DNA of 64,000 bases, from the NCBI GenBank assembly GCA_000092065.1, contig CP000587.1, one strand, 5' to 3'. This document shows positions 6,014 to 52,130 of this stretch, in pieces. The position numbers and the translations under genes were made by a program. The first letter of the stretch is position 1. Every line of letters starts with the position of its first letter. The notes below the pieces were generated by a model that did no database searches, was not told the DNA's origin, and saw only the letters and a list, made by a program, of their open reading frames with translations. Source of the DNA: Ostreococcus lucimarinus (taxonomy: Eukaryota).

Positions 6014-7123
6014 TCACACTCGCTTCTTACTTTTTCGAGCCTCCTCGCGTCTCGCCTGTCGCGTGTCCACCACGGGCGGCTTCCATCGCAACCACTTCAC
6101 GAACGCGCGAACGCGCTTAAACACGCGCGTGACTAAACTTATCCCCGTTACCGCTAAAAACACTGAGCGCGCGAATCGCCACGCACCGCCGATGAATGTG
6201 AAGTTTCTAAATACGTAGAAAACGACGCAGACGGCGATCGCCGTCGCGCCTCGCGACGCCAATCGAATCAACGCATCCGCCATTAAATACGCTTTATCGG
6301 GCGTCCCTCCGCGCGTGGGATCGACCCAAAGCTCTTCCGCGCGCGTCACTTCGCGCAAACGCTCGGCGGCGACTTTATCAAACCTATTCGAAGTCAACAG
6401 TCGCTTGAACAGCGCTCGCGCGCCCGCGGCGTCCCCGACGTCGCCGCCTCGCGTCGCGTCGCACTCTTCCCGCGCTCCCTCCCCCTGCACGCGCGTCGCC
6501 AACCCAGCGACGTACCTTCGCAGCATCGCATCTCCCGCGCGCAGCACCCCGAGCTCATCTCCCGCGTCGCCCGCTTTGACGTACGTCGCCACCAACGCGT
6601 CGTCGCACCTCGTCGTCCCCGTCGCCTCCGCGCACGTCCTCGCGTCCGCGCCCAGCGTCCCAATCCCCGGCATCTTCGTCCAGTGTTCGTGCTCGCTCGC
6701 CCGAAACAAAAGCGCGCCGCCGATCTCGAGCGCGTCTCGCGTCGCCGCCGCTTCGTCGTCGCCCCGTCTCGCCGCGCGCGTCGCCGCGTCCCGCGCGCAC
6801 TCGCCGTCGAACAGGCAGCACCCCAGCGCGACGAGCTCGGCGAACGCCAGCCTCGGCGCGTCATCCGCGACGAATCCTCCGTACCGCGACGCCCCGAGCG
6901 CGGCGTCGCCGTCCGCGCGCGTCGCGTCGCGCGTCGCCGTCGCGAGAAACTTTTGCAATCGCGCGTCGGAATCGATCGCGCGTCGCGCGTCGCGCGCGCA
7001 CGCGCGTCGCGCCTCGGCGCACTCGGTGTCGACGTCGCTCGCGCGCGCGCGCGCGGCGAGCGCCGCGACGCACGCGAGGACGAGCGCGCCGAGGCGAGCG
7101 CGGCGACGACGCGACGTCGCCAT
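6014..7123 (-). CDS. hypothetical secreted/membrane cysteine-rich protein (signal peptide, C-terminal TM)
   Basis: ATG (MATSRRRRARLGALVLACVAALA) verified at 7121-7123. Hydrophobic C-terminal segment. No recognised domain. Confidence 0.5.
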   Translation of the reverse strand: MATSRRRRARLGALVLACVAALAARARASDVDTECAEARRACARDARRAIDSDARLQKFLATATRDATRADGDAALGASRYGGFVADDAPRLAFAELVALGCCLFDGECARDAATRAARRGDDEAAATRDALEIGGALLFRASEHEHWTKMPGIGTLGADARTCAEATGTTRCDDALVATYVKAGDAGDELGVLRAGDAMLRRYVAGLATRVQGEGAREECDATRGGDVGDAAGARALFKRLLTSNRFDKVAAERLREVTRAEELWVDPTRGGTPDKAYLMADALIRLASRGATAIAVCVVFYVFRNFTFIGGAWRFARSVFLAVTGISLVTRVFKRVRAFVKWLRWKPPVVDTRQARREEARKSKKRV

Positions 7124-7300
7124 TCGACGACGCGCGCGGTGTGACGACCACCGCGAGCGAAACGACGCCATTCGACGACGCGACCGCGGTTGAAACGAAC
7201 GACGACTCGACCGTCGATCGCGCGCGCGCGCGACGGCGGCGCGCGCGCGCGAGGCGCGCGCGCGGAACGAATCCGAATCGCGCGTCGGTAATCGAACGTC

Positions 7301-11394: not shown

Positions 11395-12246
11395 ATGCGC
11401 GACGACGCGACGCCCGACGCGGTCGAGTTTCGCGGCGTCGACGATCTCGGACGCGACGTCGGGACGCACGAAGCGTTCTGGGCCGAGGTGGCGAAAAAGC
11501 GCTCGCACGGCGCCGACGGGAGCAAACCGACGTTTTACGCGAAGGGGATCGAGTACTGGGACGGCGTCGCGCCCGACGTCGACGGCGTGCTCGGTGGGTT
11601 CGCGCACGTGAGCGCGCCGGACGCTCGGGACAACGCGAAGCTGCTGGAGGACCTGCGGGGACGGGGACGAGGCGGCGCGAAGGCGAACGGGACGAAGACG
11701 ACGGCGTTGGATTGCGGCGCGGGCGTCGGACGGGTGACGAGCACGTTTTTGATCGAAAAATTTGATGAAGTCGATTTAGTGGAGCCGTGTCGACACTTTT
11801 TGGACGCAGCGGCGGCGGATGCGTTGGTGCGAGGGGACGGACGCGCGGACGGGCATCGCGCGAAGCGCTTCGTCGCGGAACCGTTGGAAAGTTTCGTTCC
11901 GGAGCGCGAGAGATACGACGTGATTTGGATTCAGTGGTGCATCGGGCACTTGACGGATGATGACTTCGTGGCGTTTTTGCGTCGTTGCAAGGATGGTTTA
12001 AGGGAAAACGGCGTCATAGTCATGAAGGAGAACAACGCGGCGAGCGGATTCATTTTAGATTTGGAAGACTCGTCCATCACTCGTTCGCACGAGTATTTGC
12101 TGCACATCATCAATCGCACAGGCATGCGCTGCCTCGAGCATCGTTTGCAGACTGGGTTTCCACCCGAGTTGTTCGCGGTTCGCATGTACGTCATAGTCCC
12201 TTCGTCCTCGTTCCGTCGTGTTGGAATACAAAATTCTTCTCGCTAG
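11395..12246 (+). CDS. protein N-terminal methyltransferase NTMT1/METTL11A-like
   Basis: IEYWDGVAPDVDGVLGGF, LDCGAGVGRVT (SAM motif I) and overall NTM1 layout. ATG at 11395. Confidence 0.75.
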   Translation: MRDDATPDAVEFRGVDDLGRDVGTHEAFWAEVAKKRSHGADGSKPTFYAKGIEYWDGVAPDVDGVLGGFAHVSAPDARDNAKLLEDLRGRGRGGAKANGTKTTALDCGAGVGRVTSTFLIEKFDEVDLVEPCRHFLDAAAADALVRGDGRADGHRAKRFVAEPLESFVPERERYDVIWIQWCIGHLTDDDFVAFLRRCKDGLRENGVIVMKENNAASGFILDLEDSSITRSHEYLLHIINRTGMRCLEHRLQTGFPPELFAVRMYVIVPSSSFRRVGIQNSSR

Positions 12247-12282
12247 GCTATCGTTACAGTGTACAGTATCTCTAATCATTAT

Positions 12283-13878
12283 TCATATAGGGGATTCTTC
12301 CCACACCACATCGCTCGCGTGGTCCATCTCATCGTCTTCCTCCATGCTCAGCCGGAGGTACTCTCCGCGAGCGAAGCGGTCCCATTCCGTCAAGTGCGGT
12401 TCTTCGCGCTCTTGTCGCATCAAGAACGGATCCCTCGTTTCAAATGCGATGAACTTGTTCATGTTGAAGAGAACGTTGAAGAAGTTGCCACTCATCTTGC
12501 TCGATCGTAAGTCGTTCAGAGTCACTCTCGCGTCGACTTCGGGCTTGAGCATATCCATCATTTGACACAAAATATCCTCGAACAGGACGGGTTCTTGCGC
12601 CAGGCATTCCATGCGTTGAATCTGTTCCTCATAAAAGTAGTATATCTCATCTCGCGTGATGACGCCGTCGTGATGAGTATCGATGCATTTGAACCAGTAA
12701 TCTAGCGCTAGCGGATGGTTCTTGTTTTCTTCACTCAAAATGAACCAAACAAAGTCTTCGTAGCTCATCTTCCCGGGCACGTCTGATTTGAACGGCCTCC
12801 CCGCCTGGTCAAATATCCTCGCCACGATTCTATACGTCAACGCGTGATTACCGTAATGCAATAAGTCTTCACGATTGATGAAAAAGTCATGGTCGGTATC
12901 GAGTTCCCAAAACTTGCAGTAGATGACGTAGAAATGCTCGTACGAAAAGTACTTCAACACGCGGTTGATGTCTTCCTCTTCTTCGGCGAGCAACATGTGC
13001 TCAAGCAAGTCTGATTTTCTCAACTCTCGCAGCGTCAAACGCCCGTTCCAGGTCGTGTTGCACTCGTAAAATATACGATAAATCACCGTTTCTACGTAAC
13101 GTTCCTGGAATTCGCGAGTGGTCTTCAAAAAATCCAAGCCCGGATGCGTTTGCGTCATCTCCGTGAGCACCTCGGTAAAGTCTGCGTGTTCCAACGCTCG
13201 AGCGTTTGGTCGTCGCAAAATTTCAAACATGGCTGAACTCACATCCTTCTGCCGACGAAGCGTAGAATTCCAATAACTAAACCATTGCTCACGCGTGACG
13301 ACATCCGCATTCGCCCCGGCCACGAGCTTCATCACACGTTTGGCGAAATATCGCGGCAATCCGACGACGTCTCGAACCACTCCCGCGAATGCCTCTAAAT
13401 TCATCCCAGTCAAGTGTCTTTCAAACATGCGCTCCGCCAACGCGACCTTTCCTGCGTTCACCTCTTCGCTCAAGCCTTCACCGCCTGGCTTGTAAAACGT
13501 CGGAATCGAGTGTGGCTCATTCGTCGCTCGAGTGAACAAAGACGCCTGCCTCGACAGCGGTCGCCTCGTAGGCGAAAACGCGCTCGTACCGTACCTCGAC
13601 CCTTTCTGCGGGCTCCTCGGTGGCGTTCCTATCGCTGCAGCGACGTTTGCGTGCATCGCACCGCTCTTCGGCTGTCGCAGCGGTTTCCCGGCCTTCGCAT
13701 CCTTCAACAGTTCGTACACCAAGTTTTGGCTCTCCGCCATGGATAACCAGTTTAAAAATAACTCGTCCAACTTCAGCTTACTGGACGGGAATTTCGACGC
13801 CGCGCTGATGTTTTCGTTCCCTGAGCGTTCGCCCAGGGGCGTTCGCGCGGGGACTTGGATGCTAAGAGACTTGGACAT
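12283..13878 (-). CDS. protein phosphatase 2A regulatory subunit B'' (PR72/TON2/FASS-like, EF-hand)
   Basis: Conserved B'' core with EF-hand (YWFKCIDTHHDGVITRDE). Full-length 531 aa. Confidence 0.8.
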   Translation of the reverse strand: MSKSLSIQVPARTPLGERSGNENISAASKFPSSKLKLDELFLNWLSMAESQNLVYELLKDAKAGKPLRQPKSGAMHANVAAAIGTPPRSPQKGSRYGTSAFSPTRRPLSRQASLFTRATNEPHSIPTFYKPGGEGLSEEVNAGKVALAERMFERHLTGMNLEAFAGVVRDVVGLPRYFAKRVMKLVAGANADVVTREQWFSYWNSTLRRQKDVSSAMFEILRRPNARALEHADFTEVLTEMTQTHPGLDFLKTTREFQERYVETVIYRIFYECNTTWNGRLTLRELRKSDLLEHMLLAEEEEDINRVLKYFSYEHFYVIYCKFWELDTDHDFFINREDLLHYGNHALTYRIVARIFDQAGRPFKSDVPGKMSYEDFVWFILSEENKNHPLALDYWFKCIDTHHDGVITRDEIYYFYEEQIQRMECLAQEPVLFEDILCQMMDMLKPEVDARVTLNDLRSSKMSGNFFNVLFNMNKFIAFETRDPFLMRQEREEPHLTEWDRFARGEYLRLSMEEDDEMDHASDVVWEESPI

Positions 13879-14289
13879 GGTCGACGGCGTCCCGGTCGTG
13901 AGGTTTGAATTTGAATTCGTGATTTGAAATCAATACGACTCGTGCGTCGAGTCGACTGCGCGCGATCGACTGCGCGCGGATCAATGATCCTCGACGCGAG
14001 TGTCTCACGGATTGCGCGTGTCACACGCGCGAGCGAGGTCGCGAACGACGCGCACTGCGGACGAATGCCGAAAATAGAAAATCCGGCCCTTTTTGTTTGG
14101 GACGCCGCGTCCCGGACGCGAGGGAGTACAGTGCTTGTTCAAATTTATTGCAACATCGTGCGTATCATCAACTTCAAAACGGCGCGCAATGGCGCGCATA
14201 CCAAAAATAAACCGACGAGCGGGTGTCGGCGGCGAAGATGAAGTGTAAGAATCGCGCTGCGGCGCAAGTGCGTGCGGGGCGGTCACCAG

Positions 14290-34986: not shown

Positions 34987-35811
34987 TCATCTCGCCACGA
35001 GCGTCGGCGGAGCCGGAAGCCGATACGAGTAGTCGCCTTCGAGGTCTAAATCTCTCCCCCCCTCGCCGCCGTTCCGCACGCGCACCACTTCAATCTCAAA
35101 CAGCAACGGACCGTCGCGATAATTTTCCATCCGCCTCTTCGCCGCGAACGTGTCCGGCTGCGGAAAAACGTCGTCGTCGACCCATCCCAAGTTTGGAGGC
35201 ACCAGAATTCGCCGTATCCCGCCCTTACGCATCCCCACCACGCACGGCGTGACCGCTCGCGGAAGCTTCGTCGCCCCCAGCGTCGCCGTCTCGAAATCTC
35301 CCACGTCGTCCCTCCCCTCGTAGCCGTATCCGCGACCGTACAACAGAATCGGCGTCCCGCCGCTCGAAAACTTAAAGTACGCCCCCGACGACAGTCTGTA
35401 CACCTTGAACGCGAAATCGACGCGCGACCCCGCGACGGCTTCCTCGCCCTCCTCGCCCGCGGCGTACTCGCGATACCGCAACCCGGATCGAAGCGTCGTC
35501 GTCGGCGCGTCGTCGTCGAGCTCGGCGTCCTTTTCGTCTCGCATCGCCTCCGCGCGTCGCATCGCCGCGACGCGCGCGTCGTACGTCTCCCTGCTTCTCG
35601 CCGTCGACGTCGGCGGCGGTTTCCCGAGTCCGTACGCCTCCGCGCGCGGCGTCTCGAGCGCGCGCGTCACCGCGACCGTCGCCGCCGTCGTCATCAACCG
35701 TCGCCTCGACGCGCCTTCGCTCGCGCGCGTCGCCGCGCGCGTCGCCGCGCGCGTCGTCGAGCGTCGCGTCGACGCGCCCGCGTTCGTCCGCGACGCCGCG
35801 CGCGTCCGCAT
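34987..35811 (-). CDS. FKBP-type peptidyl-prolyl cis-trans isomerase with N-terminal targeting peptide (likely plastid lumen)
   Basis: FKBP core ([19 protein letters not shown]...[20 protein letters not shown]). ATG verified at 35809-35811. Confidence 0.7.
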
Positions 35812-35907
35812 CGCCGCGCGTCGCGCGCCGTCGTCTCGCGCGCGATCGAATCGTCGCGATCGATCGACGCCATTCCGTCGCGCGCGCGCGGATTCGACGC
35901 TCGAGCG

Positions 35908-36189
35908 ATGGCGCTCCCGGCCAAGGCGGCGAACGCGAACCCGTCGCTGGTGCTGCCGTCCGAGCTCGTCGAGCGGTGCGTCGGGAGCCCGCTGTGGGTG
36001 CTCATGAAGAGCGAGCGAGAGTTGGTCGGGACGCTGCGAGGCTTCGACGTGTACGTCAACATGGTGCTCGAGGACGTCACGGAGTACGAGACGACGGCGG
36101 AGGGACGGCGGGTGACGGGGCGGTTGGATCAGATCCTGCTGAACGGGAACAACATCGCGATGCTGGTGCCGGGGGGGGGGCCGGAGTAG
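35908..36189 (+). CDS. LSM5: U6 snRNA-associated Sm-like protein LSm5
   Basis: Sm1/Sm2 motifs ([20 protein letters not shown]...[15 protein letters not shown]). ATG at 35908. Confidence 0.8.
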
Positions 36190-36337
36190 GGACGGCGCGG
36201 CGGATCGCAAAGCGCGACGCGCGGAGTAGAGAAACGAACGGTAGATTTTAATCGGATGCGACGAGCGATCGATCGGATGCGTGGATTGGTTTCGTGACGA
36301 CGCGATGCGATGGCGTTACGCGGCGCGGTGTCGGACC

Positions 36338-39310
36338 TCAGGGGGGCGCGACGTCGGCGGCGAGCGGGACGCGCGCGCGGGCGTCGGACCAAATCGCGTC
36401 TGCGCTCTTGTTTGCCGCGGAATTTGATTTCCTGCACGCGACTTTGACTGTTTTTAGCCGCGCGTTGTTTCGATCGAACTCGCGCTCGACGCGTGTCGCG
36501 CGCGAGCGAATCGCCTCTAGAACCTTGAGCGCGGTGTCCACGCCGACGTTGGCCTCGCGCACTTCGCCCATGATGTCGCTCAGGCGTGTCTCCGCGGCTT
36601 CGAGCTGCGCTTTGAGCGAGCTCACCTTGCGTTCGCGACGCTCGGCGTTGCTCGTTTTCGTTTTGTGCTTGCGCTTGGCGATTTCCCACATGCGCAACGC
36701 CGCGGATTCCGCCGCCGACGCGTGCACGACTTTGTGCGACGTCATCGTCGCTTGCTCTTCTGTACTGAGCATTAAGCTCCGCATCTTGTTCTTGTTCGCT
36801 TCAATCTTTTCCAGTCGTTCGCGCTCGAACGGGGTCAGCACGTTCGTGATCTCGTCGCGCATCTTTTCCCACTCGACGCGTAAACCCGGGAAGTGCTTGC
36901 TGAGAATCTTTTGTTCCTTTTGCCGCCGCTCGCGACACGGTTCCCAGTTACACGGACACCCGAGTCCGTGAAGCTTACCACCGCTCTGAAGAAACTCATT
37001 TGTTCGTTCTTCTCTCTCACGGATCTCGCTGTACTCATCCACCCGCGTGCTTTGATTCGCCAGAGCGCCGTCGAGCGGCGTCAGAGACTCTTGCTCGTCG
37101 ACGGCTTCGACAGAGGATCCCGCGCGCGTTTCCGCAGCGTACACGCCGACGGGGCCTTTCGTGCCCTCAACTTTTGACGCAACTAAAACTGTATTTGTCT
37201 CCGCCTTGGCTACTGAAAACGCAGCGATTTCTGTCTTCGTCAGCGGAGTGCTGCAGCCCATCGGAAACGAATCGCGGCACTGCCAAACCTTGGATTTGCG
37301 CGCCTTTAACATTTGATCAAACGGAATCTCGCGCCATCGGTCGCAGACATCGCATGCGATCCAACTGTCGCGATAGTCTTCGCACGCCACTCGGTGAAGC
37401 CGGGTGGTGAGTTCGATGAACGGCGGGCTTTTCACGAATTTGCCGTCGACGGGAATGTTAAACTCGCCGGCGGCGTGGAATTCGTCGTGAAAGCGGCTAT
37501 AAATATCAGCCTGTTGCGGATGCGTTGGGGACACGATGCAAAACACACAAATCCCGAATCCTATCGGACAGTTCGAATAGTCTTTGAACTGCACCGCCTT
37601 GCGCCGCAGGTGAATGCGAGGAAAAGGCAGAAGGCGTTGGAAGTAGCTCGTGTCGGTAGAGTTTCGGCACACGAGGATGATGCCAGGGCAATGTTCCCAC
37701 TCCACTTCGTTGATCGCTCGATTGATAAACCGCCATTGCACCTGGGCTTCGTATGGAGGGTTCACCAAGACGTGATAACCTGCCCACGGGTTAGACATCT
37801 TCAGTCCATCGTCCTTCTTGTCGTAACATTTTTCTGCGGGAATGTTTGGCCTGAGATGCGAATTCGTGCACGGGTCGAGTAAACCTTTGATGAGCGGCGC
37901 TTCAATCGTAGGGAGATCGAGTCCAAACACTTTACACGCGCCGTGAACTATCCAATCTGGCGTTAATCCGACTTTCATCGACTCCAGCGCTTGTACATTT
38001 GCCTTGTTCGTCGCCTCGGCGTCCGACTCTTCGTCGCTCGACGAACTCGCATCCGATGTCGACCACGGATCGGACCATTCTTCAACTTCGGCCGCATCTG
38101 CGCACCGAAGCGCCTTCAGCGCGCTCCCACGTGATTTTCGTCTCGATGCGGACTCGTTATACCATAGTAGCATACCTTCGCGGTACGAAGATTGCCTTTG
38201 GGCGTCGTACGGCGCTAAATCTTCCTTGGACGCCCACTCAAAGCAGTTGCTACCGAATAACTTGACGAGAGCCAAACTGCCCTCGGGTTTGATGTCAAGA
38301 AGATCGTACGCGTTTGCGCACTGTCGAAGCTTCCACGTGCGACCGGGCCACCACTGTCCTTTGTGGGTCGAGCGCAATCGCACCCAAACAATCATACCGG
38401 GTGGGAATTCCGTCAACTCGGCGTCTCGGCGCTTGATAAAACGCGAATCCGGCCGGCGCTCTCGCCTGGGCTTTTGTGTGTTCGCCGCTCCACTCTGCAC
38501 CGATGACGGTGTCGTCGTCGCGGCCTTTTTCGGCGTCTTCGTGACTTTTTTAGTGTATTTGCTCTTAGGAGCGAGCGAGCCAGCGGAGCTCTGGTCCGGT
38601 ATCGGCGTCATCGGCGCCGGCGTCGCCGGCTCATCTACTACGCAGTCGGTCGATCCCGCCGCGCGCGCGCCAACTTTATCCTTTATCGTTGCCGGCGCGC
38701 TCCTCGTCGCCTCGTCCCCATCCATCGCCGGGACATCGACGCTCAACCCCATCGTCCTCGTCTTCGCCGGCGCCCGCCCCCCGCGCGGCGTCTCCCCAAC
38801 CGTCGCCGGCGCCGACTTTTCCATCCGTTTCGATCCCGCGTCCGACCTCTCCGCGCCGACCGCGATCGCTCGCGCCCTCATTTCTCCGCCCACCGCCGCC
38901 TCGCCGCGTCCATCACCCCCCCCCCGCGCCCGCTTCGTTCCGCTCGGCGTTCGCTCGCCGCGCTCGCGCTCGGCGCGTCGCCGCCTGCACGCTCGACTCT
39001 GCGCGTTCTTCTTCGCCCTCGCCAGCTCCCGCGCCGTCGCGCCGTCGTCATCGCGCGTCGTCGTCGTCACCGCGACCGCGTCGTCGTCGTCGCGCGTCCG
39101 CGCGCGCCCTCCCGAGCGCACGGCGACGCGCTGCGTCGGCCAGTGGAGGCGAAACGCGCGCGAGGGCGCGACGCCATCGGCGTCGTCGCGCGGCGCGCGC
39201 GCGCCCGCGGGCGGTCTCGACGCGCGAGACGCGCGGCCGTTGAGCTCGGCGTTGAGCGCGCGCGCGAGTTCGACGCTCGCGAGGTCGTCGGGCGACGCGC
39301 GCGCGGACAT
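36338..39310 (-). CDS. chromatin-reader/methyltransferase-like protein: PWWP domain + NPPY-motif N6-adenine MTase-like core + CW-type zinc finger + C-terminal coiled coil
   Basis: PWWP (MIVWVRLRSTHKGQWWPGRTWKL), YHVLVNPPYEAQ (MTase motif IV-like), CW finger (WIACDVCDRWREIPF...WQC). First codon in the track is TTG; first ATG (MSARASPDD) about 39310. Confidence 0.55.
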   Translation of the reverse strand: MSARASPDDLASVELARALNAELNGRASRASRPPAGARAPRDDADGVAPSRAFRLHWPTQRVAVRSGGRARTRDDDDAVAVTTTTRDDDGATARELARAKKNAQSRACRRRRAERERGERTPSGTKRARGGGDGRGEAAVGGEMRARAIAVGAERSDAGSKRMEKSAPATVGETPRGGRAPAKTRTMGLSVDVPAMDGDEATRSAPATIKDKVGARAAGSTDCVVDEPATPAPMTPIPDQSSAGSLAPKSKYTKKVTKTPKKAATTTPSSVQSGAANTQKPRRERRPDSRFIKRRDAELTEFPPGMIVWVRLRSTHKGQWWPGRTWKLRQCANAYDLLDIKPEGSLALVKLFGSNCFEWASKEDLAPYDAQRQSSYREGMLLWYNESASRRKSRGSALKALRCADAAEVEEWSDPWSTSDASSSSDEESDAEATNKANVQALESMKVGLTPDWIVHGACKVFGLDLPTIEAPLIKGLLDPCTNSHLRPNIPAEKCYDKKDDGLKMSNPWAGYHVLVNPPYEAQVQWRFINRAINEVEWEHCPGIILVCRNSTDTSYFQRLLPFPRIHLRRKAVQFKDYSNCPIGFGICVFCIVSPTHPQQADIYSRFHDEFHAAGEFNIPVDGKFVKSPPFIELTTRLHRVACEDYRDSWIACDVCDRWREIPFDQMLKARKSKVWQCRDSFPMGCSTPLTKTEIAAFSVAKAETNTVLVASKVEGTKGPVGVYAAETRAGSSVEAVDEQESLTPLDGALANQSTRVDEYSEIREREERTNEFLQSGGKLHGLGCPCNWEPCRERRQKEQKILSKHFPGLRVEWEKMRDEITNVLTPFERERLEKIEANKNKMRSLMLSTEEQATMTSHKVVHASAAESAALRMWEIAKRKHKTKTSNAERRERKVSSLKAQLEAAETRLSDIMGEVREANVGVDTALKVLEAIRSRATRVEREFDRNNARLKTVKVACRKSNSAANKSADAIWSDARARVPLAADVAPP

Positions 39311-39460
39311 TCGCGCGCCGATGTGCGCCACGTCAGCGCGAGGCGACGAGTGGATGACGGAGGACGGCGCTCGAAAGTGTGGTGAAAAATACAACGCGCG
39401 CGGAGGTTCGAGCGCGTGATGCGGTGGTGTCGGCGCGCGAGCGAGCGCGCGGTGGGATGA

Positions 39461-40669
39461 CTACGGTCCGGGCGATGCGGACGACGACGAAGACGGCGTC
39501 GCGGCGGTGTCGGACGAAGGCTTTGCGGATTTACGGTCGCGGCGGCGATCCGCCGGCGGCGGCGACGGCGGACCGGCGCGCGAGCGAGCGCCGCGATCTT
39601 GACACCAGCAGTAGAATCGAGTCGTGTGCGCGGCGCCATCGTGGTCGACGGTGCGACGTAAGAGCTCGATACCGGCGTTGGGGTCGCTCGTGGCGTCGTC
39701 GGGGACGACGACGGGGCGGTCCTTGAGCGTGATGTCGAACCAGCGCTTCGCGACGCCGTGATCTCTGCGCTTCGCGGCTTGGTACAGGCGCATGGAGATT
39801 CTGGCGTCGACGCAAGGGTCGTGCGCCTCACCTTCTTCTTGAATTTTCTCTCCCAAGAATTGCTCGGCGAGCGCGCGAAGCTTGAACGGCAGGTGCGTGT
39901 GGCGAAGATAGAGTGGAAATTGCGCCGTGTCTCGCCGCATTCCCTTCTTCCATTTGATGTCCAATACCTCGAGATCGTGCTCGACGGAGTGACCAATCAA
40001 CAAGTGCTTGACACCGACGTGCTCTCGTCGAGTCTGAACCGCCTTGCCGAGCAAAATTTGCACCACTATCGCTCTCACGCGCTCGAGCGACGGCGCGTCG
40101 GCGAGCTTCTCTGGCGTCGCCCCCGTCAATTCTTCTCGATAATCCGTGACTTCTTCCCCGGGATTCACCCAAGTGTGAAGTAATATCTCACCACTAGATC
40201 CTACAACGCACACGCGCGCGCACGCGTGTTTTTCACCCGCCTCACCGACGCCCACGAATTCGCAATCGAGCGCCACGCACGGCCAGTCGTCCACGTCGTC
40301 GTCCGCGTCCTCCGTCTCGCGAAAGATGCACGCGTGACTCGCCGTCGCCTCATCATCTTGAAATATTTCATAGCACCTCTCACACCCTGCCCGCTTATAC
40401 GCCTCCGCACACGACGCCTTGGGCAAATTCCCGACCAAATGTTGTCTCAGCGTGTCGTACGACGGAAAGTGTCGTCCGCACGCGTTGCACACGGCGTCGT
40501 GCGCGCTGTGCTGCACCAGCTTCCAGTGCGCCTCCAACGCGGTCGAATCCGCAAAGAATTTATGACAACACGCGCACGGTTTCTTCTGCGTCCGTTTCGT
40601 CGCCACTTTAAGTCCACACGCACCGAAATGACTCGACACCTCCGCCACCGTCGCGTCCGCGTCGCCCAT
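39461..40669 (-). CDS. C2H2 zinc finger + DEDDh 3'-5' exoribonuclease (REX4/ISG20-like)
   Basis: VALDCEFVGVG (Exo I), HSVEHDLEVL, HDPCVDARISMRLY (Exo III with H). N-terminal C2H2-like fingers. ATG verified at 40667-40669. Confidence 0.7.
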   Translation of the reverse strand: MGDADATVAEVSSHFGACGLKVATKRTQKKPCACCHKFFADSTALEAHWKLVQHSAHDAVCNACGRHFPSYDTLRQHLVGNLPKASCAEAYKRAGCERCYEIFQDDEATASHACIFRETEDADDDVDDWPCVALDCEFVGVGEAGEKHACARVCVVGSSGEILLHTWVNPGEEVTDYREELTGATPEKLADAPSLERVRAIVVQILLGKAVQTRREHVGVKHLLIGHSVEHDLEVLDIKWKKGMRRDTAQFPLYLRHTHLPFKLRALAEQFLGEKIQEEGEAHDPCVDARISMRLYQAAKRRDHGVAKRWFDITLKDRPVVVPDDATSDPNAGIELLRRTVDHDGAAHTTRFYCWCQDRGARSRAGPPSPPPADRRRDRKSAKPSSDTAATPSSSSSASPGP

Positions 40670-40869
40670 CCTTATCTGCTCGATTCGTCTCTCACGCGCC
40701 CTCTCCCGCGCTCGACCGCGTCTCGCGCGTCCGCGACCGCGCCGTCGCGCGCGTGCGCGTTCGACGCGTCTCCTCTCTCTCGCGCGCGCCGATCGACCGC
40801 GCGGTCGCGTCGCGCGGCGTCCGTTCGCGCGCGGTCGCGTCGCCGATCGGTCACCGGCGCGCTCGGCGT

Positions 40870-40891
40870 CGCGCGCGCGCGCGCGCGCGCC
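40870..40891. repeat. (GC)11 alternating purine-pyrimidine tract in divergent promoter
   Basis: gcgcgcgcgcgcgcgcgcgcgc read directly. Potential Z-DNA former. Confidence 0.7.
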
Positions 40892-41111
40892 CGCGCGTCG
40901 GCGCCGCGCGGGCGTGCGCGTCGACGGCGACGCGACGGGACGCCGACGACGCCGACGACGCGCGCGCGCGCGTCAACGAATGCGGACCCGCGACGTGCTG
41001 TCGCCGTTCGGTCGAACAATCCGCAGAGCGCGACGACGCGTCCGCGCGACGCGAGACGAGTCGCGCGCGAAGAGACGCGCGCGAACGATCGCGCGCGAAG
41101 AGACGCGCTCG

Positions 41112-43562
41112 ATGACGTCGGCGATGCGGGACGCGAAGGCGTCGCTGCGTGACTTTTCGAGCGACGATTTCGATCGCGTGCGGTGGATTAACGAGCAAAC
41201 GCGCGCGCGAATCGGCGACGCGGGAGGGAGCGGGCGCGACGCGACGGCGCGGGATGGATCGGCGGTGGTGGCGCGCGCGGTCGGAGAGGGGACGCGAGGG
41301 ACGAGCGCGTCGCCGTTGGAACGATTTTTGGCGGATTTGGAACTGCAGCTGCAGTTGCTCGGCGAAGATCTGTCGATGTCGCTGGAAGAGCGCTCGCGCG
41401 AGGGTGTCGCGCGCGTGCCCAAGGCGGTGAAGGAGATAGAAGTCGTCGAGGGGCGGGTGAAGCGTCTGCACGAGGAAGTGCGAGGGATATTGGATCGATT
41501 GGACGAGGTGGAGTCGGAGTCGCGCGCGAGCGTGGAAGCGCTGCGACAGCTCGACGCGGCGAAACAACGCATGGAGAGCGCGCGAGAGACGCTGCAGGAG
41601 GCGAATGGACTAGCAGATTTGATGGCGAGTGTGGACGGGATCTTTGCGAGCGGGAATATTCGTAACATGTCCGAGTCGTTGGCGCGGATGAAGCGCGGTT
41701 TAGCCGTCGTGGGCGACGTGCCAGAATTCGCCGACGGGCAAGACAAGGTGAACGCGTTCGAGCACAAGCTCGAGGCGATCGTCAGACCGGCCTTGATCAC
41801 GGCGTTGGAGTCACAAAACAGCACGGCGGCTCGCGAACATCGCGACGTGTTGCGCACTACCGGCCGCGGTTCGGCGTTGGAGAGCATTTATGCGGACACG
41901 CGCGTGACGTCTCGCATGCTCAAGCAGTGGAAGTCGCGCGAGCGCGATGCGACGACGACTGACGCTGGGAGGCTGGACGCTTCGGTGCATATGATCGATG
42001 AATTCTTGAAGTATTGCGCCACCGCTCTCAAAGAGGAGATATCTTGGTGCTCGAGTACGTTCCCCGAAGACGCCGTGCTTTTGATTCCGTTGTCTTGGTG
42101 TTCGCTTCACACCACGCTCGAAACGTCCATCACGGAGAAGCTCAGCTCGCTAACGCTCGAGCAACTCGTCTCGGCTCGAAATTCGTTCCAAACGTACGTC
42201 GAAGACGTTGGGATAGCGTTTACAAAACTCGCCGGCGACGCTGCAGCGCACGCGAACGCCGACGCCGTCAAGGGCGCCATCGGCGACGCGTTGATGGCGA
42301 TTGTCGAGCCTTTCATCGCGGTTGAGCAGCGTTTCGGCCAGCTCGCGCTTGCAGACATACGAACTACTTTAGATTCTTCGGTAAACATCCCTGAGGCACA
42401 GTCTATTGCGACGTCGGACGACTTGACCGCAGTTATACAAAGCGTGCTCGCCACGCTGCCGAAAGCCATCGACGTCTTCGGCGTCGTCATAGACAGATGC
42501 GAGGCGATTACCGCTGGCGTTGAGACGATGACTTGCATTCATGCGATTGAAAGTGGAATGGAACACTACGTCGATTTAGTCGCGCTCGTCCTTCGTGACT
42601 TGAGAAACGCGGCCGGTTTGATTGACTCGACCGCGACGAACATGAACTCAAACACGACTTCCGCGGGCGAAGAATTCATCAGAGGATCGCTCAGTATGCT
42701 GGACATGATCAACGCCATCCCGAACGCACTGTTAGATTTCGAGTCCGATCTACGTGCAAAGCTTCTGAAGCTTCGAGCGACGCTGCGACCGGCTTTGGAT
42801 GTTACTTTGGAGCTTGGTGACGGACCAAAAAGCCGTACGCTCCTCGGTTTGAGCATCGCGGCGCACGCGGCGCGATCACGAAAGTTGGCCACGTTCCTTG
42901 ACAAGGTGGCGGATGCCGCGGTGAAGCACTCGCTCGATGGATCCATAATTCCGGTCGGTGCTGAGCACATGAACGCTCTGACTAGATCACTCGAAAAATT
43001 CGTGTACGACACTCTCCTCGGGCGGGTGTCGCTCGAACTCAAGGGAATCAGCACGTCTGAGGTTTGGAGCGCCAAACCTGCCGAGAGCGCGTATAAACTC
43101 CCGACGTTTAGCGCTTATCCGCAAGAGCGAATGACGAATGCAGGTGAATATCTGCTTTCATTGCCGCAGCATCTGGATAACATGCACGACGACGACTTGG
43201 CTCGCGCGACGTCGCTTTCGGGCGACTCGAATGCGGCGCAAGAGCCGGCGACTTCCGAGGCGTGGATTGCGAAAATCGCCGAAGCGAGTGCTGAGTTGCT
43301 CTTGAAAGAAGTGCGTGCCATCGCGTCGCTCACCGACCAAGGCGCTGCGCAGTTGTCGGCGGATTTGGAGTATTTTTCGAACATAGTTGCAGCGCTCTCA
43401 CTCGCGCCACCCAGCGCGCTCATCGCCTGGTACAAGTGCGCGAGCGCGCCTCGCGACGAATACGAAGATTTTGCACGCGCTGCGACTTCAGAGGGCATCG
43501 ACGTGCGCGTCGTGCGAGCCGCCGCGGCGACGCGAGGGATTAAGTTAAGTAGTTCTTTGTAA
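41112..43562 (+). CDS. conserved oligomeric Golgi complex subunit 7 (COG7)-like
   Basis: Length and helical-bundle character. C-terminal region (GAAQLSADLEYFSNIVAALSL) resembles COG7. ATG at 41112. Confidence 0.5.
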   Translation: MTSAMRDAKASLRDFSSDDFDRVRWINEQTRARIGDAGGSGRDATARDGSAVVARAVGEGTRGTSASPLERFLADLELQLQLLGEDLSMSLEERSREGVARVPKAVKEIEVVEGRVKRLHEEVRGILDRLDEVESESRASVEALRQLDAAKQRMESARETLQEANGLADLMASVDGIFASGNIRNMSESLARMKRGLAVVGDVPEFADGQDKVNAFEHKLEAIVRPALITALESQNSTAAREHRDVLRTTGRGSALESIYADTRVTSRMLKQWKSRERDATTTDAGRLDASVHMIDEFLKYCATALKEEISWCSSTFPEDAVLLIPLSWCSLHTTLETSITEKLSSLTLEQLVSARNSFQTYVEDVGIAFTKLAGDAAAHANADAVKGAIGDALMAIVEPFIAVEQRFGQLALADIRTTLDSSVNIPEAQSIATSDDLTAVIQSVLATLPKAIDVFGVVIDRCEAITAGVETMTCIHAIESGMEHYVDLVALVLRDLRNAAGLIDSTATNMNSNTTSAGEEFIRGSLSMLDMINAIPNALLDFESDLRAKLLKLRATLRPALDVTLELGDGPKSRTLLGLSIAAHAARSRKLATFLDKVADAAVKHSLDGSIIPVGAEHMNALTRSLEKFVYDTLLGRVSLELKGISTSEVWSAKPAESAYKLPTFSAYPQERMTNAGEYLLSLPQHLDNMHDDDLARATSLSGDSNAAQEPATSEAWIAKIAEASAELLLKEVRAIASLTDQGAAQLSADLEYFSNIVAALSLAPPSALIAWYKCASAPRDEYEDFARAATSEGIDVRVVRAAAATRGIKLSSSL

Positions 43563-43673
43563 CGATTAGCGTTTCGCTTACAGAGCTTGATTTGTTACAA
43601 AGTTCCGAATTCTAGAAGAATGTTGTGGTATTGCGCCGCGAGAGTTCTTGTGTCAACTTCTGAGACTGAAGAA

Positions 43674-45136
43674 TCAGATGACAGTGCCAGCCTTGATCAC
43701 GGCATCCTTGATGACGACAATGATGCCATCGCGGATGATGTAACCTTCGCTTTCGCAATCCTTATCCATGACGCCAGCCTCATTGAGGATTTGGCAGTTT
43801 TCACCAATGCGCGCGTTCTTGTCGATGATGGCTTTGCGAATCTTCGTGCCGGCGCCAATACCGATCGGCGTGCAGCCCGGAAGGCTAGCCGGGTCGCATT
43901 CTTCGAGGCTCTCGTAGTAATCAGCACCCATGACGAGTGTGTCCTCCAAATCACACCCTTCGTTGACCGTCGATCTCAAACCAACCATGACGTTTTTGAG
44001 CTTGGCTTGCTTGATGGTGCAGCCGTCGCCGATCGTGGAGCGCTCGATTTCGCAATCTTGCACCTTGCTCGGCGGCAAGAAGCGAGACTGGGTGTAGATC
44101 GGCGCGTTGCGATCGTAGAAACTGAACTTCGGGTTCGGGTCGTTGCACTCCAAGTTGGCGTGGAAAAACGCATCGACGGTACCGATGTCCTCCCAGTATC
44201 CGTCGTACAAGTGAGCGACCACCTTCATGCCCTTCTGAGCCGCCATCGGGATGATTTCACCACCGAAATCGTTCGCTTCCGGGAAATCATCTTGAAGCAC
44301 CTGCTCCATAGCCTTGGCGTTGAACACGTAGATACCCATCGAGGCAATGTACGGCATTTCCTTGGCGCGTTCCGCGTCCAAGCCTAAGATGGTGGTGTCG
44401 CATTGCATCGCCTTGAGAGCGTCACCCTTGGGCTTTTCGGAGAACTCGATGATGGTGGCGTGTTCGTTAATCTTCATCAAGCCGAAAGAGCTGGCTCGCT
44501 TCTCATCCGTCGGCAAAGCGGCGACGGTGATGTCGGCGTTCTTCGCGCGGTGGTCGCGAATAAACGGACGGTAATCCATGCGGTACAAGTGATCGCCCGA
44601 AAGAATCAAGTATTCCTCGCACCCGCTCTCGGCAAACAACCACAAGTATTGACGAACAGCATCCGCGGTACCTTGGAACCACGCCTTGTTGATCGGGCTC
44701 TGTTGAGCCGCGAGCACTTCGACGAATCCCTGACGCGTGTACGTCCCGATGTTCGTGTTGTACGCCTGGGACAAGTGTCTGTTCAAAGATGCGCTGTTAA
44801 ACTGCGTCAAGCAGTACACCTTGTTGATGTCAGAGTTGATACAGTTCGACACCGGGATATCGATCAAGCGGTAGTTCGCCCCCAACGGCACCGCCGGCTT
44901 CGCCCGCTTCTTCGTCAACGGGTACAATCGCGTCCCCGCGCCGCCGCCGAGAATGATGGACAACACGTTATCCATCGACGCATCGTGTTCCTTCTTCCCC
45001 TCGCTCTTCTCGTGCATCGCCGGCGACGTCGCATGAATCATCACCGCCGCCCGCGTCTCGACGCGTCGAATCGCGCGCGCATTCTTCGCCGCGCCTCTCG
45101 TCTTAATCGCCGCCGTCCCGCGCGCGCTCGCCCGCG
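43674..45136 (-). CDS. glucose-1-phosphate adenylyltransferase (ADP-glucose pyrophosphorylase) small-subunit type, main exon
   Basis: [24 protein letters not shown] and a full NTP-transferase plus left-handed beta-helix C-terminus. The in-frame region upstream of the core is open to an acceptor CGCAG ending at 45137. Confidence 0.9.
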
Positions 45137-48867: not shown

Positions 48868-50625
48868 ATGAGACGCGAGAGCAGCCCGTTGCTCGTGGAC
48901 GTCGTCGCGGACGATGATTTAGACGACGACGACCCGACGACGTCGTCTCTGGACGCGCGCGTCACCTTTACGCAGCTGTTATCGCTCGCGAAACGCGAGT
49001 GGGACACGTTACTCTTCGGGACACTCAGTCTGCTCGTTCGCCTGCCGTTCTCGGTGTCGATGCCGCATTTCACGAGCGTCGCGATCGGGGCGTCGATTGA
49101 CGGCGATGAAGCGCGATTTCGCGCCAACGTCACGCGGTTCCTGGTCGTTGGCGTGGTGAACGGAGTTTTAGACTTTAGCAATGTGTTCCTCTTTGCGTTG
49201 GCGCAGAGTCGCGTGGCGAGGCGGTTGCGGAATCGAGCGTTCGCGGCGACGCTGAGGAAAAATATGGCGTATTTTGATGCGAGAACGTCGGGTAAAATAA
49301 ATTCGACGGTGACGAACGATACGAGCGCGGTGAGCGCGAATTTGTCTTGGCTGTTACGCAGCTGCGTGGAAGCGGTCGTCAGGTGCGTCGGTGTCGGCGC
49401 ATATCTTTTGTTTTGGGTGAACTTCGAGCTCGGTGCGTTGGCGCTCGTCGTGATACCGATAACAAGCGTGGTCAATTACTTCTATGGCAAGTTATTGAGC
49501 GCTAACGCAGAGTCAGTGCAAGAGACGTTGGCGAAATCGAACGGCGTGGCGCAAGAAACTATTTCAAACATCGTCACGGTGCGATCGTTCGCGAACGAAC
49601 CGTTTGAACGCAGACGGTTCGGCGATGCCATAGATGAGTGGTACGAGCAGTCGTATCGCGCCGCGCAACTGTCAGGATGGTACTATTCGTTTATGTATTC
49701 GCTCGTGTCGGCGTGTTTCGTGCCGGCGGCAATTCTGTACGTAGGAGGTGGATTCGTCGTCGACGGCTCGATGCACGCCGAAAAGCTCGTTGCGACCATG
49801 CTTTATTCTGCGATTTTACAAGAGTATTTCGGGAATCTTTTGAGCTCTTTTACGAATTTGTTCGCCGCGCGAGGTGCAGCGGCGGAATTGTTCAAAGTTT
49901 TGGCCAAGAACGAGCGAGAAGACGACGACGCGGACAATGGCGCGACGCTACCCATCGACGACGTGAAGGGAGCAATATCGTTTTCAAACGTCTCCTTCTC
50001 GTATCCGACTCGACCGGATATTCCCGCGCTCTCGGGCGTGAGCTTCGATGTGTCGCCCGGCGAGATCATCGGCATCGTTGGTCGGAGTGGTTGCGGCAAG
50101 TCTACAGTGTTCGCACTGCTACAGCGTTTCTACACCGAATTTAGCGGCGACATCACACTCGACGGAGCGCGCATCGAGACGCTCTCGCCGAACTGGCTCC
50201 GGCGTCACTGCTTCGCGCTCGTTGGCCAAGAGCCAGTACTTTTCAACGGCACAATTCTTTCTAACATTGCGTACGCTCGTTTGGGCGCCGGAATCGATCG
50301 GGAGCGTGCGATTGAGTGCGCTAAGACTGCGCTGATCCACGACGTCATCGAAGACGAACTCGGCGGCTACGATACACACGTCGGAGAGCGGGGTTGTCAA
50401 TTGTCAGGCGGCCAAAAGCAGCGCGTCGCAATTGCTAGAGCGTTGTACTCGTCTCCGCGGGTGTTATTATTGGACGAACCCACGAGCGCTCTTGATTTAG
50501 AAGCCGAATCCATCGTTACCGCGGCTTTGCGAAAAGCCGCTCGCGGACGAACAACGATCGTCATATCACACACGCCCGTCGACTCGTTCGTCGACAGAAC
50601 TTTAGAACTCTCCCCTAGAACATAG
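48868..50625 (+). CDS. ABC transporter B-family half-transporter (TMD-NBD)
   Basis: Six-helix TMD then NBD (GRSGCGKST, LSGGQKQRVAIARAL, LLLDEPTSALD). ATG at 48868. Confidence 0.85.
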   Translation: MRRESSPLLVDVVADDDLDDDDPTTSSLDARVTFTQLLSLAKREWDTLLFGTLSLLVRLPFSVSMPHFTSVAIGASIDGDEARFRANVTRFLVVGVVNGVLDFSNVFLFALAQSRVARRLRNRAFAATLRKNMAYFDARTSGKINSTVTNDTSAVSANLSWLLRSCVEAVVRCVGVGAYLLFWVNFELGALALVVIPITSVVNYFYGKLLSANAESVQETLAKSNGVAQETISNIVTVRSFANEPFERRRFGDAIDEWYEQSYRAAQLSGWYYSFMYSLVSACFVPAAILYVGGGFVVDGSMHAEKLVATMLYSAILQEYFGNLLSSFTNLFAARGAAAELFKVLAKNEREDDDADNGATLPIDDVKGAISFSNVSFSYPTRPDIPALSGVSFDVSPGEIIGIVGRSGCGKSTVFALLQRFYTEFSGDITLDGARIETLSPNWLRRHCFALVGQEPVLFNGTILSNIAYARLGAGIDRERAIECAKTALIHDVIEDELGGYDTHVGERGCQLSGGQKQRVAIARALYSSPRVLLLDEPTSALDLEAESIVTAALRKAARGRTTIVISHTPVDSFVDRTLELSPRT

Positions 50626-50645
50626 CGCATCAATCAAAATAGAAT

Positions 50646-52130
50646 CTAGGATGGTTTACGATCCATCAAGCCCCCACCCCACGCATCAGGAGACCAATCT
50701 GCGAGATTATCCGGCGGTACAAGAGTTCCCGCGCCTCCACCAATCAAACATCTCACCGCTTCGCTCTTCGTCACAGCGTAATGAAAGCGCGCGCTAAACC
50801 AATCCGCGAGGTGAGACTTCATCGTGTGTTTCGTCTCATCACAGGGTGCAGCGGCGTCTAACAAACGTTCTGTCGCTGCTTCCCACGTTAAACGATGGAT
50901 TTCATCATCCGTCATCGGTTTTGGCGTCGACGTTGTGACTTCTCTAATGCACTTTGCAAACTCATCCATATTGGAATACGTGCGACAATTTGGAAACGTG
51001 GCAAAGAACGCGTTGCTCGGATGTTCTGCGCACACGACGAATTTGCCCATCGCCAACGCCTCCGCGGACGTCGTCGCGACGACGTCAGACAGTGATGGAT
51101 TAATGAATACCTTGTAATCGAGAATTTTCTCATTCGCGTGATCCAGACGACCGAGCAAGCTCAGCGGCAGAGCCTTCTCAGCTACAGCTGCTTTCACGTC
51201 GGCAAAATCATCACCATCACCGTATACGTCCATTTCCAAGCGTTCTTTTGCACTTTTAGCGTACTTTTCGTTGAAATCGCCCACCACGTGCATCAACTCT
51301 GAGTATCCTTTCGCCCAAACGCACTTTCCGATGAAATACGCCCCGCGACTAAACGCCCCGCTGCCTTCCTTCTTGATTCGTTTCGCCTTCTCTCTACCAG
51401 CATCGATGAATCCATTTGACACACCGTGCACGTTTTGCGTGATCGACCGCGCAAACTCTTGTACCGCGTCCGACAATTTGATGACCTTGTGTGTGTGGCA
51501 TCGCGCCGTCAAATGATTAATCCAACGCAGTATCTGCTCCTTACGTTCACCATCCTCCTCTCGTCGCGCGTATTCCAAGTAATTTGTGTGAATGATTCCA
51601 ACCACATGCTTAAACCGCGACGTCCACCGCGCTCCGGGGTGATACCAGCACAAATGCTCCGGCTCCTCGAGTATCGCCACGTCTCTGCTCGCCTTCGGCA
51701 CGCGCAACGTGATATCCCCCACGGGCACGATGCTTCCCTTGTCCGTCGCGTACCTTCCCGGATACCACGCGATCAAAATTTTTGGCGCGAATCCCACGCG
51801 TTTTTTGGTCCAGTCCATGATGTACGCCTCTTGTTCGCTCGGCGTCTTGAACTCGACGCGCTTTGGGTAGACGATCCTCTGATCCTTTCTCGCCAACCAC
51901 GGTACTAAGAGCGTCACCTCGCGCGTGGTGTCTCCGTTCGCCAGATACACCGCTCGGAGCAACGGATTAACGCTCGTCCCCGTCATCCACGGCAGCGCGG
52001 CGGTGGTGACGATGACGAATTTACGTCCGGGCGCGCGCAGGTCCTTGGGGTTCGTTCGCGAGCGTTTCTTCGCTCGACGCTCGTTGAGATCGCCGAGCGA
52101 ACCGCGGCTGAACATGCGCTTGAGGACCAT
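50646..52130 (-). CDS. digalactosyldiacylglycerol synthase (DGD1/DGD2-like GT4 glycosyltransferase)
   Basis: VIVTTAALPWMTGTSVNPLLRAVYLA signature and a GT4 C-terminal domain. ATG verified at 52128-52130. Confidence 0.75.
   Translation of the reverse strand: MVLKRMFSRGSLGDLNERRAKKRSRTNPKDLRAPGRKFVIVTTAALPWMTGTSVNPLLRAVYLANGDTTREVTLLVPWLARKDQRIVYPKRVEFKTPSEQEAYIMDWTKKRVGFAPKILIAWYPGRYATDKGSIVPVGDITLRVPKASRDVAILEEPEHLCWYHPGARWTSRFKHVVGIIHTNYLEYARREEDGERKEQILRWINHLTARCHTHKVIKLSDAVQEFARSITQNVHGVSNGFIDAGREKAKRIKKEGSGAFSRGAYFIGKCVWAKGYSELMHVVGDFNEKYAKSAKERLEMDVYGDGDDFADVKAAVAEKALPLSLLGRLDHANEKILDYKVFINPSLSDVVATTSAEALAMGKFVVCAEHPSNAFFATFPNCRTYSNMDEFAKCIREVTTSTPKPMTDDEIHRLTWEAATERLLDAAAPCDETKHTMKSHLADWFSARFHYAVTKSEAVRCLIGGGAGTLVPPDNLADWSPDAWGGGLMDRKPS

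Follow-up and report, generated by a model that had tools for sequence, protein, structure and literature searches.

The closest described relatives of the gene analysed here belong to the 'chlorophyte-type Dam' clade, which Iyer, Zhang & Aravind (2016, BioEssays, PMC4738411) placed within the group-2 N6-adenine methyltransferases. This group consists of M.EcoKI/M.TaqI-like enzymes, includes PCIF1 as another clade, and has two hallmarks: the core is preceded by an N-terminal helix, and coil takes the place of the helices around strand 3 (PMC4738411). Family 1 of the chlorophyte-type Dam clade is found in chlorophyte algae, usually in single copy, and Ostreococcus tauri was among the species analysed (PMC4738411). 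We studied a 64,000-nucleotide stretch of the Ostreococcus lucimarinus genome (assembly GCA_000092065.1, contig CP000587.1; hereafter the window), which contains one Dam-type copy, a minus-strand gene whose product carries a methyltransferase-like core between a PWWP domain and a CW-type zinc finger. This gene is almost certainly the O. lucimarinus orthologue of chlorophyte-type Dam family 1.

The window protein shares with family 1 the BMB/PWWP + Dam-type methyltransferase + ZfCW/PHD-X architecture, the chlorophyte taxon range (as seen in its named homologues), the group-2 fold features, the phage and prokaryotic Dam-type relatives and the functional proposal, and we observed no essential difference between the two. 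Both the architecture and the functional proposal have already been published (Iyer et al. 2011/2016). The original prediction, which was made from the sequence of the window, considered that this combination is not a standard annotated family. That is correct in so far as databases carry the protein as 'hypothetical protein', the label of every named sequence among the 185 in its 90%-identity cluster, but the claim of novelty is unsupported, since the family to which the gene is orthologous was published in 2011/2016. The finding is a rediscovery of a published prediction and does not reveal a new type of system. An O. tauri protein with PWWP and CW, which may be the orthologue of the window gene, was also depicted in a 2012 survey of PWWP proteins, where no methyltransferase domain was noted (PMC3457860). 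What is new here is the family-wide census of an N-P-x-[YF] motif IV, the apparently degenerate PWWP cage of Ostreococcus, and a conserved C-terminal helix and coiled coil.

Among other systems that combine these parts, ZCWPW1 and ZCWPW2 also carry CW and PWWP in one polypeptide, but they have no enzymatic domain, and their domain order is CW then PWWP, whereas the methyltransferase of the window protein lies between PWWP and CW. The AMT1/MT-A70 complex of ciliates, fungi and green algae has the same proposed product, N6-methyladenine (6mA) in linker DNA near transcription start sites (TSSs) marked by trimethylation of histone H3 lysine 4 (H3K4me3), and the two occur in the same organisms (PMC12695648). 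It is built on an unrelated methyltransferase family with a DPPW motif and is heteromeric with p1/p2, in contrast to the histone readers fused within the window protein. A Pfam scan of the whole protein returned no MT-A70, PCIF1 or N6AMT1 family match, and membership of MT-A70 was rejected on this basis. The original prediction had also noted that green algae carry genomic 6mA, and a 2025 nanopore survey detected it in both Ostreococcus and Micromonas, where it sits in the linkers between nucleosomes a short way downstream of active TSSs, co-localised with H3K4me3 nucleosomes and mainly at ApT (PMC12695648). The Dam-type family was not considered in that survey (PMC12695648).

The coding sequence of the window gene (36338..39310) is a single exon of 990 codons and a stop, and an identical 990-amino acid product was called on independent contigs in two independent Logan assemblies. 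As defined by the ORF tool, the open reading frame (ORF) extends over 36338..39394 and has 1018 codons with a TTG start. Its first ATG is codon 29, at window position 39310, and the TTG at 39394 is probably not the true start of the methyltransferase gene. Residue numbers of domains follow the 1018-codon ORF, all parts of the protein lie on the minus strand, and their coordinates were checked by translation. The presence in one protein of about 1000 amino acids of a PWWP domain, a strand followed by NPPY, and a CW finger, as had been proposed, was borne out by Pfam, family profiles and a structural model.

The core (METHYLTRANSFERASE; residues 475-669; 37388..37972) is a Dam-type (PF05869-like) class-I S-adenosylmethionine (SAM) domain, as indicated by profile, fold and PHROG evidence, and runs from an N-terminal LTPDW helix through strands 1-7 to a C-terminal helical extension. 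The equivalent of motif I, LDPCTN (residues 506-511; 37862..37879), forms the end of strand 1 and the SAM-binding loop. Its D-P pair is invariant across algal and phage relatives, and LDPCTN itself is present in 83/110 family members. The NPPY tetrapeptide (residues 545-548; 37751..37762) was placed by translation, model and family census directly after strand 4, HVLV. Upstream of it, besides LDPCTN, stand DGL..W and the Y-D with which strand 2 ends, and these SAM elements are all nearly invariant. The identification of NPPY as motif IV of an amino-methyltransferase was therefore upheld, given the strand before it and the presence of motif I. Against a chance occurrence of NPPY, the original prediction had pointed to the hydrophobic strand directly upstream, and the model places HVLV there. 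Taken by itself the tetrapeptide says little, as [DN]PP[YFW] turns up 3 times among the 85,058 amino acids of the window's six-frame ORFs. A second ORF with this pattern, at 6219-7190 (+), matched nothing in Pfam, and we regard its tetrapeptide as a chance occurrence. The case for a methyltransferase rests on profile and fold evidence beyond the tetrapeptide.

As a single sequence, the window protein matched Dam (PF05869) over residues 517-586, which span NPPY, with 14.8 bits and an E-value of 0.023. This falls short of the gathering threshold of 28.1 bits, and only 6/24 homologues gave E<0.1. Profiles were far clearer. The single significant relative in a tblastn search of a phage collection was a 'methyltransferase' of an Alteromonas phage (a PF05869 member, 33.3 bits), with which the algal-core profile aligned at a probability of 97.4% (E 1.3e-11). 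When the profile was compared by hhalign with eight aligned phage proteins, each of them a PF05869 match (best 5.4e-17), the probability was 99.2% (E 2.9e-19) over 150 columns, and the window protein's core matched PHROG 111, 'DNA methyltransferase', with an E-value of 4.2e-10. As to the methyltransferase family, which the original prediction had left between several candidates, these results point to a Dam-like one; orthology to a non-methyltransferase family was not found. The algal core is best described as a divergent sister group of PF05869 and not as a Pfam-defined member.

The small Dam proteins of phages and bacteria (PF05869/PHROG 111), such as that of Alteromonas phage PT11-V22 (QHZ59869.1) and the methyltransferases of Vibrio and Planktothrix phages, are homologous to the core over about 150 columns. 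Both sides share the (Y/L)TP helix, the LDP of motif I, DGL..W, an N-x-x-[YF] motif IV, (S/N)ST(S/D)..(W/Y)F and a C-terminal RF..xF...GE. Unlike the window protein, the phage proteins are stand-alone, 170-245 amino acids long and without chromatin domains, and the algal core differs from them in an 11-residue insert before strand 1. We also noticed, in four phage relatives from Vibrio and Pseudoalteromonas (L005 301-909, L006 304-897, L007 298-909 and L009 166-900), an insertion rich in Cys (PCKK...C.K..C...RG.HI), some 40 residues long, immediately behind motif IV, which reads NHPF or NHPY in place of NPPY. This insertion may be a zinc-binding target-recognition element.

An AlphaFold2 model of the core with the CW finger (253 amino acids) is confident, with a predicted local distance difference test score (pLDDT) of 88.4 and a predicted template modelling score (pTM) of 0.84. 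In the model an N-terminal helix is followed by strands at 28-33, 46-49 and 67-70, of which the third is HVLV with NPPY immediately behind it, and then by the rest of a Rossmann-type sheet. Both group-2 hallmarks are visible, namely the N-terminal helix and the coil around strand 3. A Rossmann SAM fold with motif I upstream of NPPY is thus present, and the adenine methyltransferase reading stands as a candidate because this fold and the SAM motifs surround NPPY. Foldseek against viral models recovered phage 'DNA N-6-adenine-methyltransferase' proteins with E-values down to 5e-8. Among PDB sequences, phmmer with the core and CW returned CW domains only, and the family profile returned CW and PHD domains and no methyltransferase; no close relative has a solved structure.

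The CW-type zinc finger (residues 675-720; 37235..37372) follows the core immediately. The single sequence matches zf-CW (PF07496) at residues 678-709 with 19.4 bits, under the Pfam cut-off of 27.5, and 22/24 aligned homologues match it, with a best E-value of 7.9e-11. In the PDB sequences, the family profile matches the CW structures of ASHH2, MORC3 and ZCWPW2, the best being the ASHH2 CW (E 2.1e-5), and Foldseek pairs this part of the model with the CW of SDG8/ASHH2, in the SDG8 CW-H3K4me1 complex, at a probability of 0.98-0.99. The zinc ligands C681, C684, C706 and C714 and the tryptophans W678, W687 and W704 are in place. CW fingers belong to the domains known as readers of methylated H3K4. 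Upstream of the core, the PWWP domain (residues 333-410; 38165..38398), with the motif QWWPG, matches PF00855 with an E-value of 2.8e-7 and 31.4 bits against a cut-off of 25.6. Before it lies an N-terminal region of about 300 amino acids (38399..39310), Ala/Arg/Gly-rich and of low complexity, which is not conserved and aligns to gaps in the homologues.

Downstream of the CW finger, the homologue alignment revealed a 23-residue helix motif (LTPFERERLEKIEANKNKMRSLM; residues 853-875; 36770..36838) with the family pattern LTx[FL]ExxRxx[RK]IxxN+xx[LM]xxL and no Pfam match. It is followed by a predicted C-terminal coiled coil (36401..36715), which shows weak Tropomyosin and SMC-type matches; the homologues are helical and charged there too. 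Most full-length homologues have both the helix motif and the coiled coil, as conserved features. An NCBIfam scan of the whole protein gave coiled-coil noise only (SMC, Rad50).

Homologues were collected by sequence search. Thirty-six relatives were found, of which 24 were aligned, the named ones being the green algae Trebouxia, Coccomyxa and Astrephomene. A search of a representative library gave 3283 matches at E<=1e-3, and the best 150 of these 3283 all belong to the algal family. The collinear order PWWP/PHD-Dam-CW is seen again in Trebouxia and Coccomyxa and in many green algae from metagenomes; besides CW, Pfam matches among the 24 aligned homologues were a PHD finger in 10/24 and PWWP in 5/24. 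Over the aligned homologues, column identity in the core averages 60%, and LDPCTN, NIPAE, DGL, RNSTDT, FKDY and PIGFG are nearly invariant in the family. Such conservation argues for a selected enzymatic pocket.

Motif IV was surveyed in 108 family members aligned to the core hidden Markov model. NPP[YF] was present in 40, NP[DE][YF] in 48, NP[SA][YF] in 13 and another form in 7. The canonical form thus accounts for 37% of members, the family consensus is N-P-x-[YF], and an xPPx motif IV is not conserved across this orthologous family. NPPY was seen in the window protein and in several metagenomic or transcriptomic homologues, while the named core chlorophytes have NPDY (Trebouxia, Coccomyxa) or NPEF (Astrephomene). 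Since NPP[YF] is found in 40/108, NPPY is lineage-specific within the family. The phage relatives have NHPF, NHPY or NPPY, so that it is the first middle residue that varies in them as against the second in algae, and the constants across both are the Asn and the aromatic residue.

Taking these results together, we lean, by a modest degree of confidence and mainly from homology and domain content, towards an active chromatin-targeted DNA adenine methyltransferase. Its catalytic core would descend from the small phage/bacterial Dam-type (PF05869) N6-adenine DNA methyltransferases and would have been set between the chromatin modules of a nuclear protein, with PWWP upstream, CW immediately downstream, and then the helix and coiled coil. 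The CW finger would bind the methylated H3K4 tail, and the PWWP domain with the basic N-terminus would bind nucleosomal or linker DNA; between them these parts would hold the protein on nucleosomes near active TSSs. The Dam-like domain is predicted to bind SAM through LDPCTN, Y-D and DGL..W, and an adenine would be flipped into the N-P-P-Y pocket and methylated at N6 in accessible linker DNA. The coiled coil probably serves oligomerisation or partner binding. The fusion of a CW finger to a Dam-like core fits the H3K4me3-linked pattern of 6mA well. The domain architecture and its recurrence across green algae, the Dam homology, the methyltransferase fold and the strong motif conservation are shown by the data, whereas catalytic activity, DNA rather than RNA as the substrate, a target sequence and specificity for a histone mark are what we infer here.

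Several observations weigh against an active DNA methyltransferase. In the literature, ten years on from the prediction of Iyer et al., we found beyond it no experimental, biochemical or genetic study of any family member. The solved fold closest to the core is that of PCIF1, an RNA cap methyltransferase, at 13% identity, and no separate target-recognition domain is evident in the protein. In motif IV the second proline is replaced by Asp/Glu in 44% and by Ser/Ala in 12% of the 108 members, which is unusual for active amino-methyltransferases. The PWWP domain also departs from its relatives, the Ostreococcus form being KGQWWPG ... VKLFGSN and that of the core-chlorophyte homologues G[FY]xxWP ... 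[FY]YG[ED]H. Two of the three presumed cage positions, which we take to correspond to F236, W239 and W263 of DNMT3B, are Gly and Leu in Ostreococcus as against F/Y in the core-chlorophyte homologues. This assessment of the aromatic cage is one of sequence inspection, because a phmmer search with the PWWP segment yielded no helpful match in PDB; on it, the methyl-lysine cage of the Ostreococcus PWWP appears degenerate, and, if the positions are correctly assigned, the domain may bind DNA instead of methyl-lysine. Finally, eukaryotic 6mA, including that of chlorophytes, has been credited to AMT1, and robust 6mA was found only in species which encode AMT1 (PMC12695648). On that attribution the known pattern has no need of a Dam-type writer, and AMT1 alone may suffice for it.

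An alternative is that the protein is an inert pseudo-methyltransferase, a module binding DNA, SAM or 6mA or a scaffold, which acts only as a chromatin reader or adaptor, much as METTL14 or AMT6/7 assist an active partner. We consider this unlikely, while giving it real weight. In its favour, about 60% of members lack the second proline of motif IV, the AMT1 pathway already explains the 6mA pattern, and the presence of the coiled coil and the conserved helix hints at a binding partner. Against this, the window protein has a canonical NPPY and an intact motif I, and N, P and the aromatic residue are kept in about 101/108 members, whereas inactive methyltransferase paralogues usually lose motif IV residues, as with EPPL in METTL14. 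The near-invariance of the other pocket motifs likewise argues against a simple decay of the NP[DE][YF] forms. Within the same group, the PCIF1-derived DIRS1 copies were judged inactive (PMC4738411), which speaks for the inert reading.

A bolder reading, in two versions, is offered tentatively, and we doubt that either version will hold. The protein would be a second green-algal 6mA writer, independent of AMT1, or else the shift in motif IV would mark a changed substrate or chemistry. In the first version the CW finger may guide the enzyme to H3K4-methylated nucleosomes, where it would lay down de novo or non-ApT 6mA, or seed sites for maintenance by AMT1; GATC/CATG-type sites, reportedly seen in Chlamydomonas in 2015, are an example of non-ApT 6mA. 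In the second version, the change from NPP[YF] to NP[DE][YF] in core chlorophytes may reflect a change of substrate or chemistry in a chromatin-bound methyltransferase.

A co-transcriptional RNA adenine methyltransferase of the PCIF1/CAPAM kind, placed by CW and PWWP on the H3K4me/H3K36me chromatin of transcribed genes and acting on nascent RNA at cap-adjacent or internal adenines, is a rather improbable alternative. The fold of PCIF1, the nearest solved one, would favour this, but the nearest relatives in sequence are phage Dam-type DNA methyltransferases and not PCIF1. The identity to PCIF1/CAPAM, a cap-specific N6,2'-O-dimethyladenosine (m6Am) RNA methyltransferase, is as low as stated above, and the window protein has neither a WW domain nor a Pfam match to the PCIF1 family, which makes it a non-member; nor was an RNA-binding domain detected. 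That the candidate is an artefact is hardly credible, whether NPPY had arisen by chance in some unrelated protein, the gene came from a contaminating phage or bacterium, or two genes had been wrongly joined: [DN]PP[YFW] does occur by chance elsewhere in the window and the single-sequence Dam match is sub-threshold, but the methyltransferase core is real according to profile, fold and PHROG results alike, and a contaminant and a fused gene model are ruled out by the eukaryotic neighbours described below and by the collinear architecture recurring in other green algae.

With this gene, green algae have beside AMT1 a further candidate adenine methyltransferase, which is unrelated to AMT1, deeply conserved and fused to histone-reading modules. 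If active, it would directly link a histone mark to DNA adenine methylation and could explain the first targeting of 6mA to H3K4me3 nucleosomes. The question is experimentally tractable because O. tauri is genetically transformable, a PEG (polyethylene glycol)-mediated transformation study of this species being cited in PMC12695648.

The methyltransferase gene is flanked by eukaryotic housekeeping genes encoding LSm5, REX4, an FKBP-like protein and COG7. The LSm5 neighbour (35908-36189, plus strand) is identical to XP_001418730.1 of O. lucimarinus CCE9901. These neighbours mark the window as ordinary chromosomal DNA of O. lucimarinus, and the methyltransferase gene as nuclear and single-exon. 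Among 40 of the 185 cluster members of the Dam-type protein (36338-39310, minus strand) there was no NCBI accession. For the neighbouring REX4 (39461-40669, minus strand), NCBI has only a 278-amino acid 'partial' model, compared with 402 amino acids in the window. The Dam-type gene and REX4 may have been missed or mis-modelled in the CCE9901 reference annotation.

A 471-amino acid ORF at 38004-39419 (plus strand) and other long ORFs at 35000-41000 lie antisense to, or overlap, real genes, and their translations are Ala/Arg/Ser-rich. These long antisense ORFs are spurious, as is typical of DNA with a guanine-plus-cytosine (GC) content of about 60-66%, and are not genes. Local GC dips to 0.52-0.55 at 12001-14000, 42001-44000 and 50001-52000, against a background of about 0.60-0.67.

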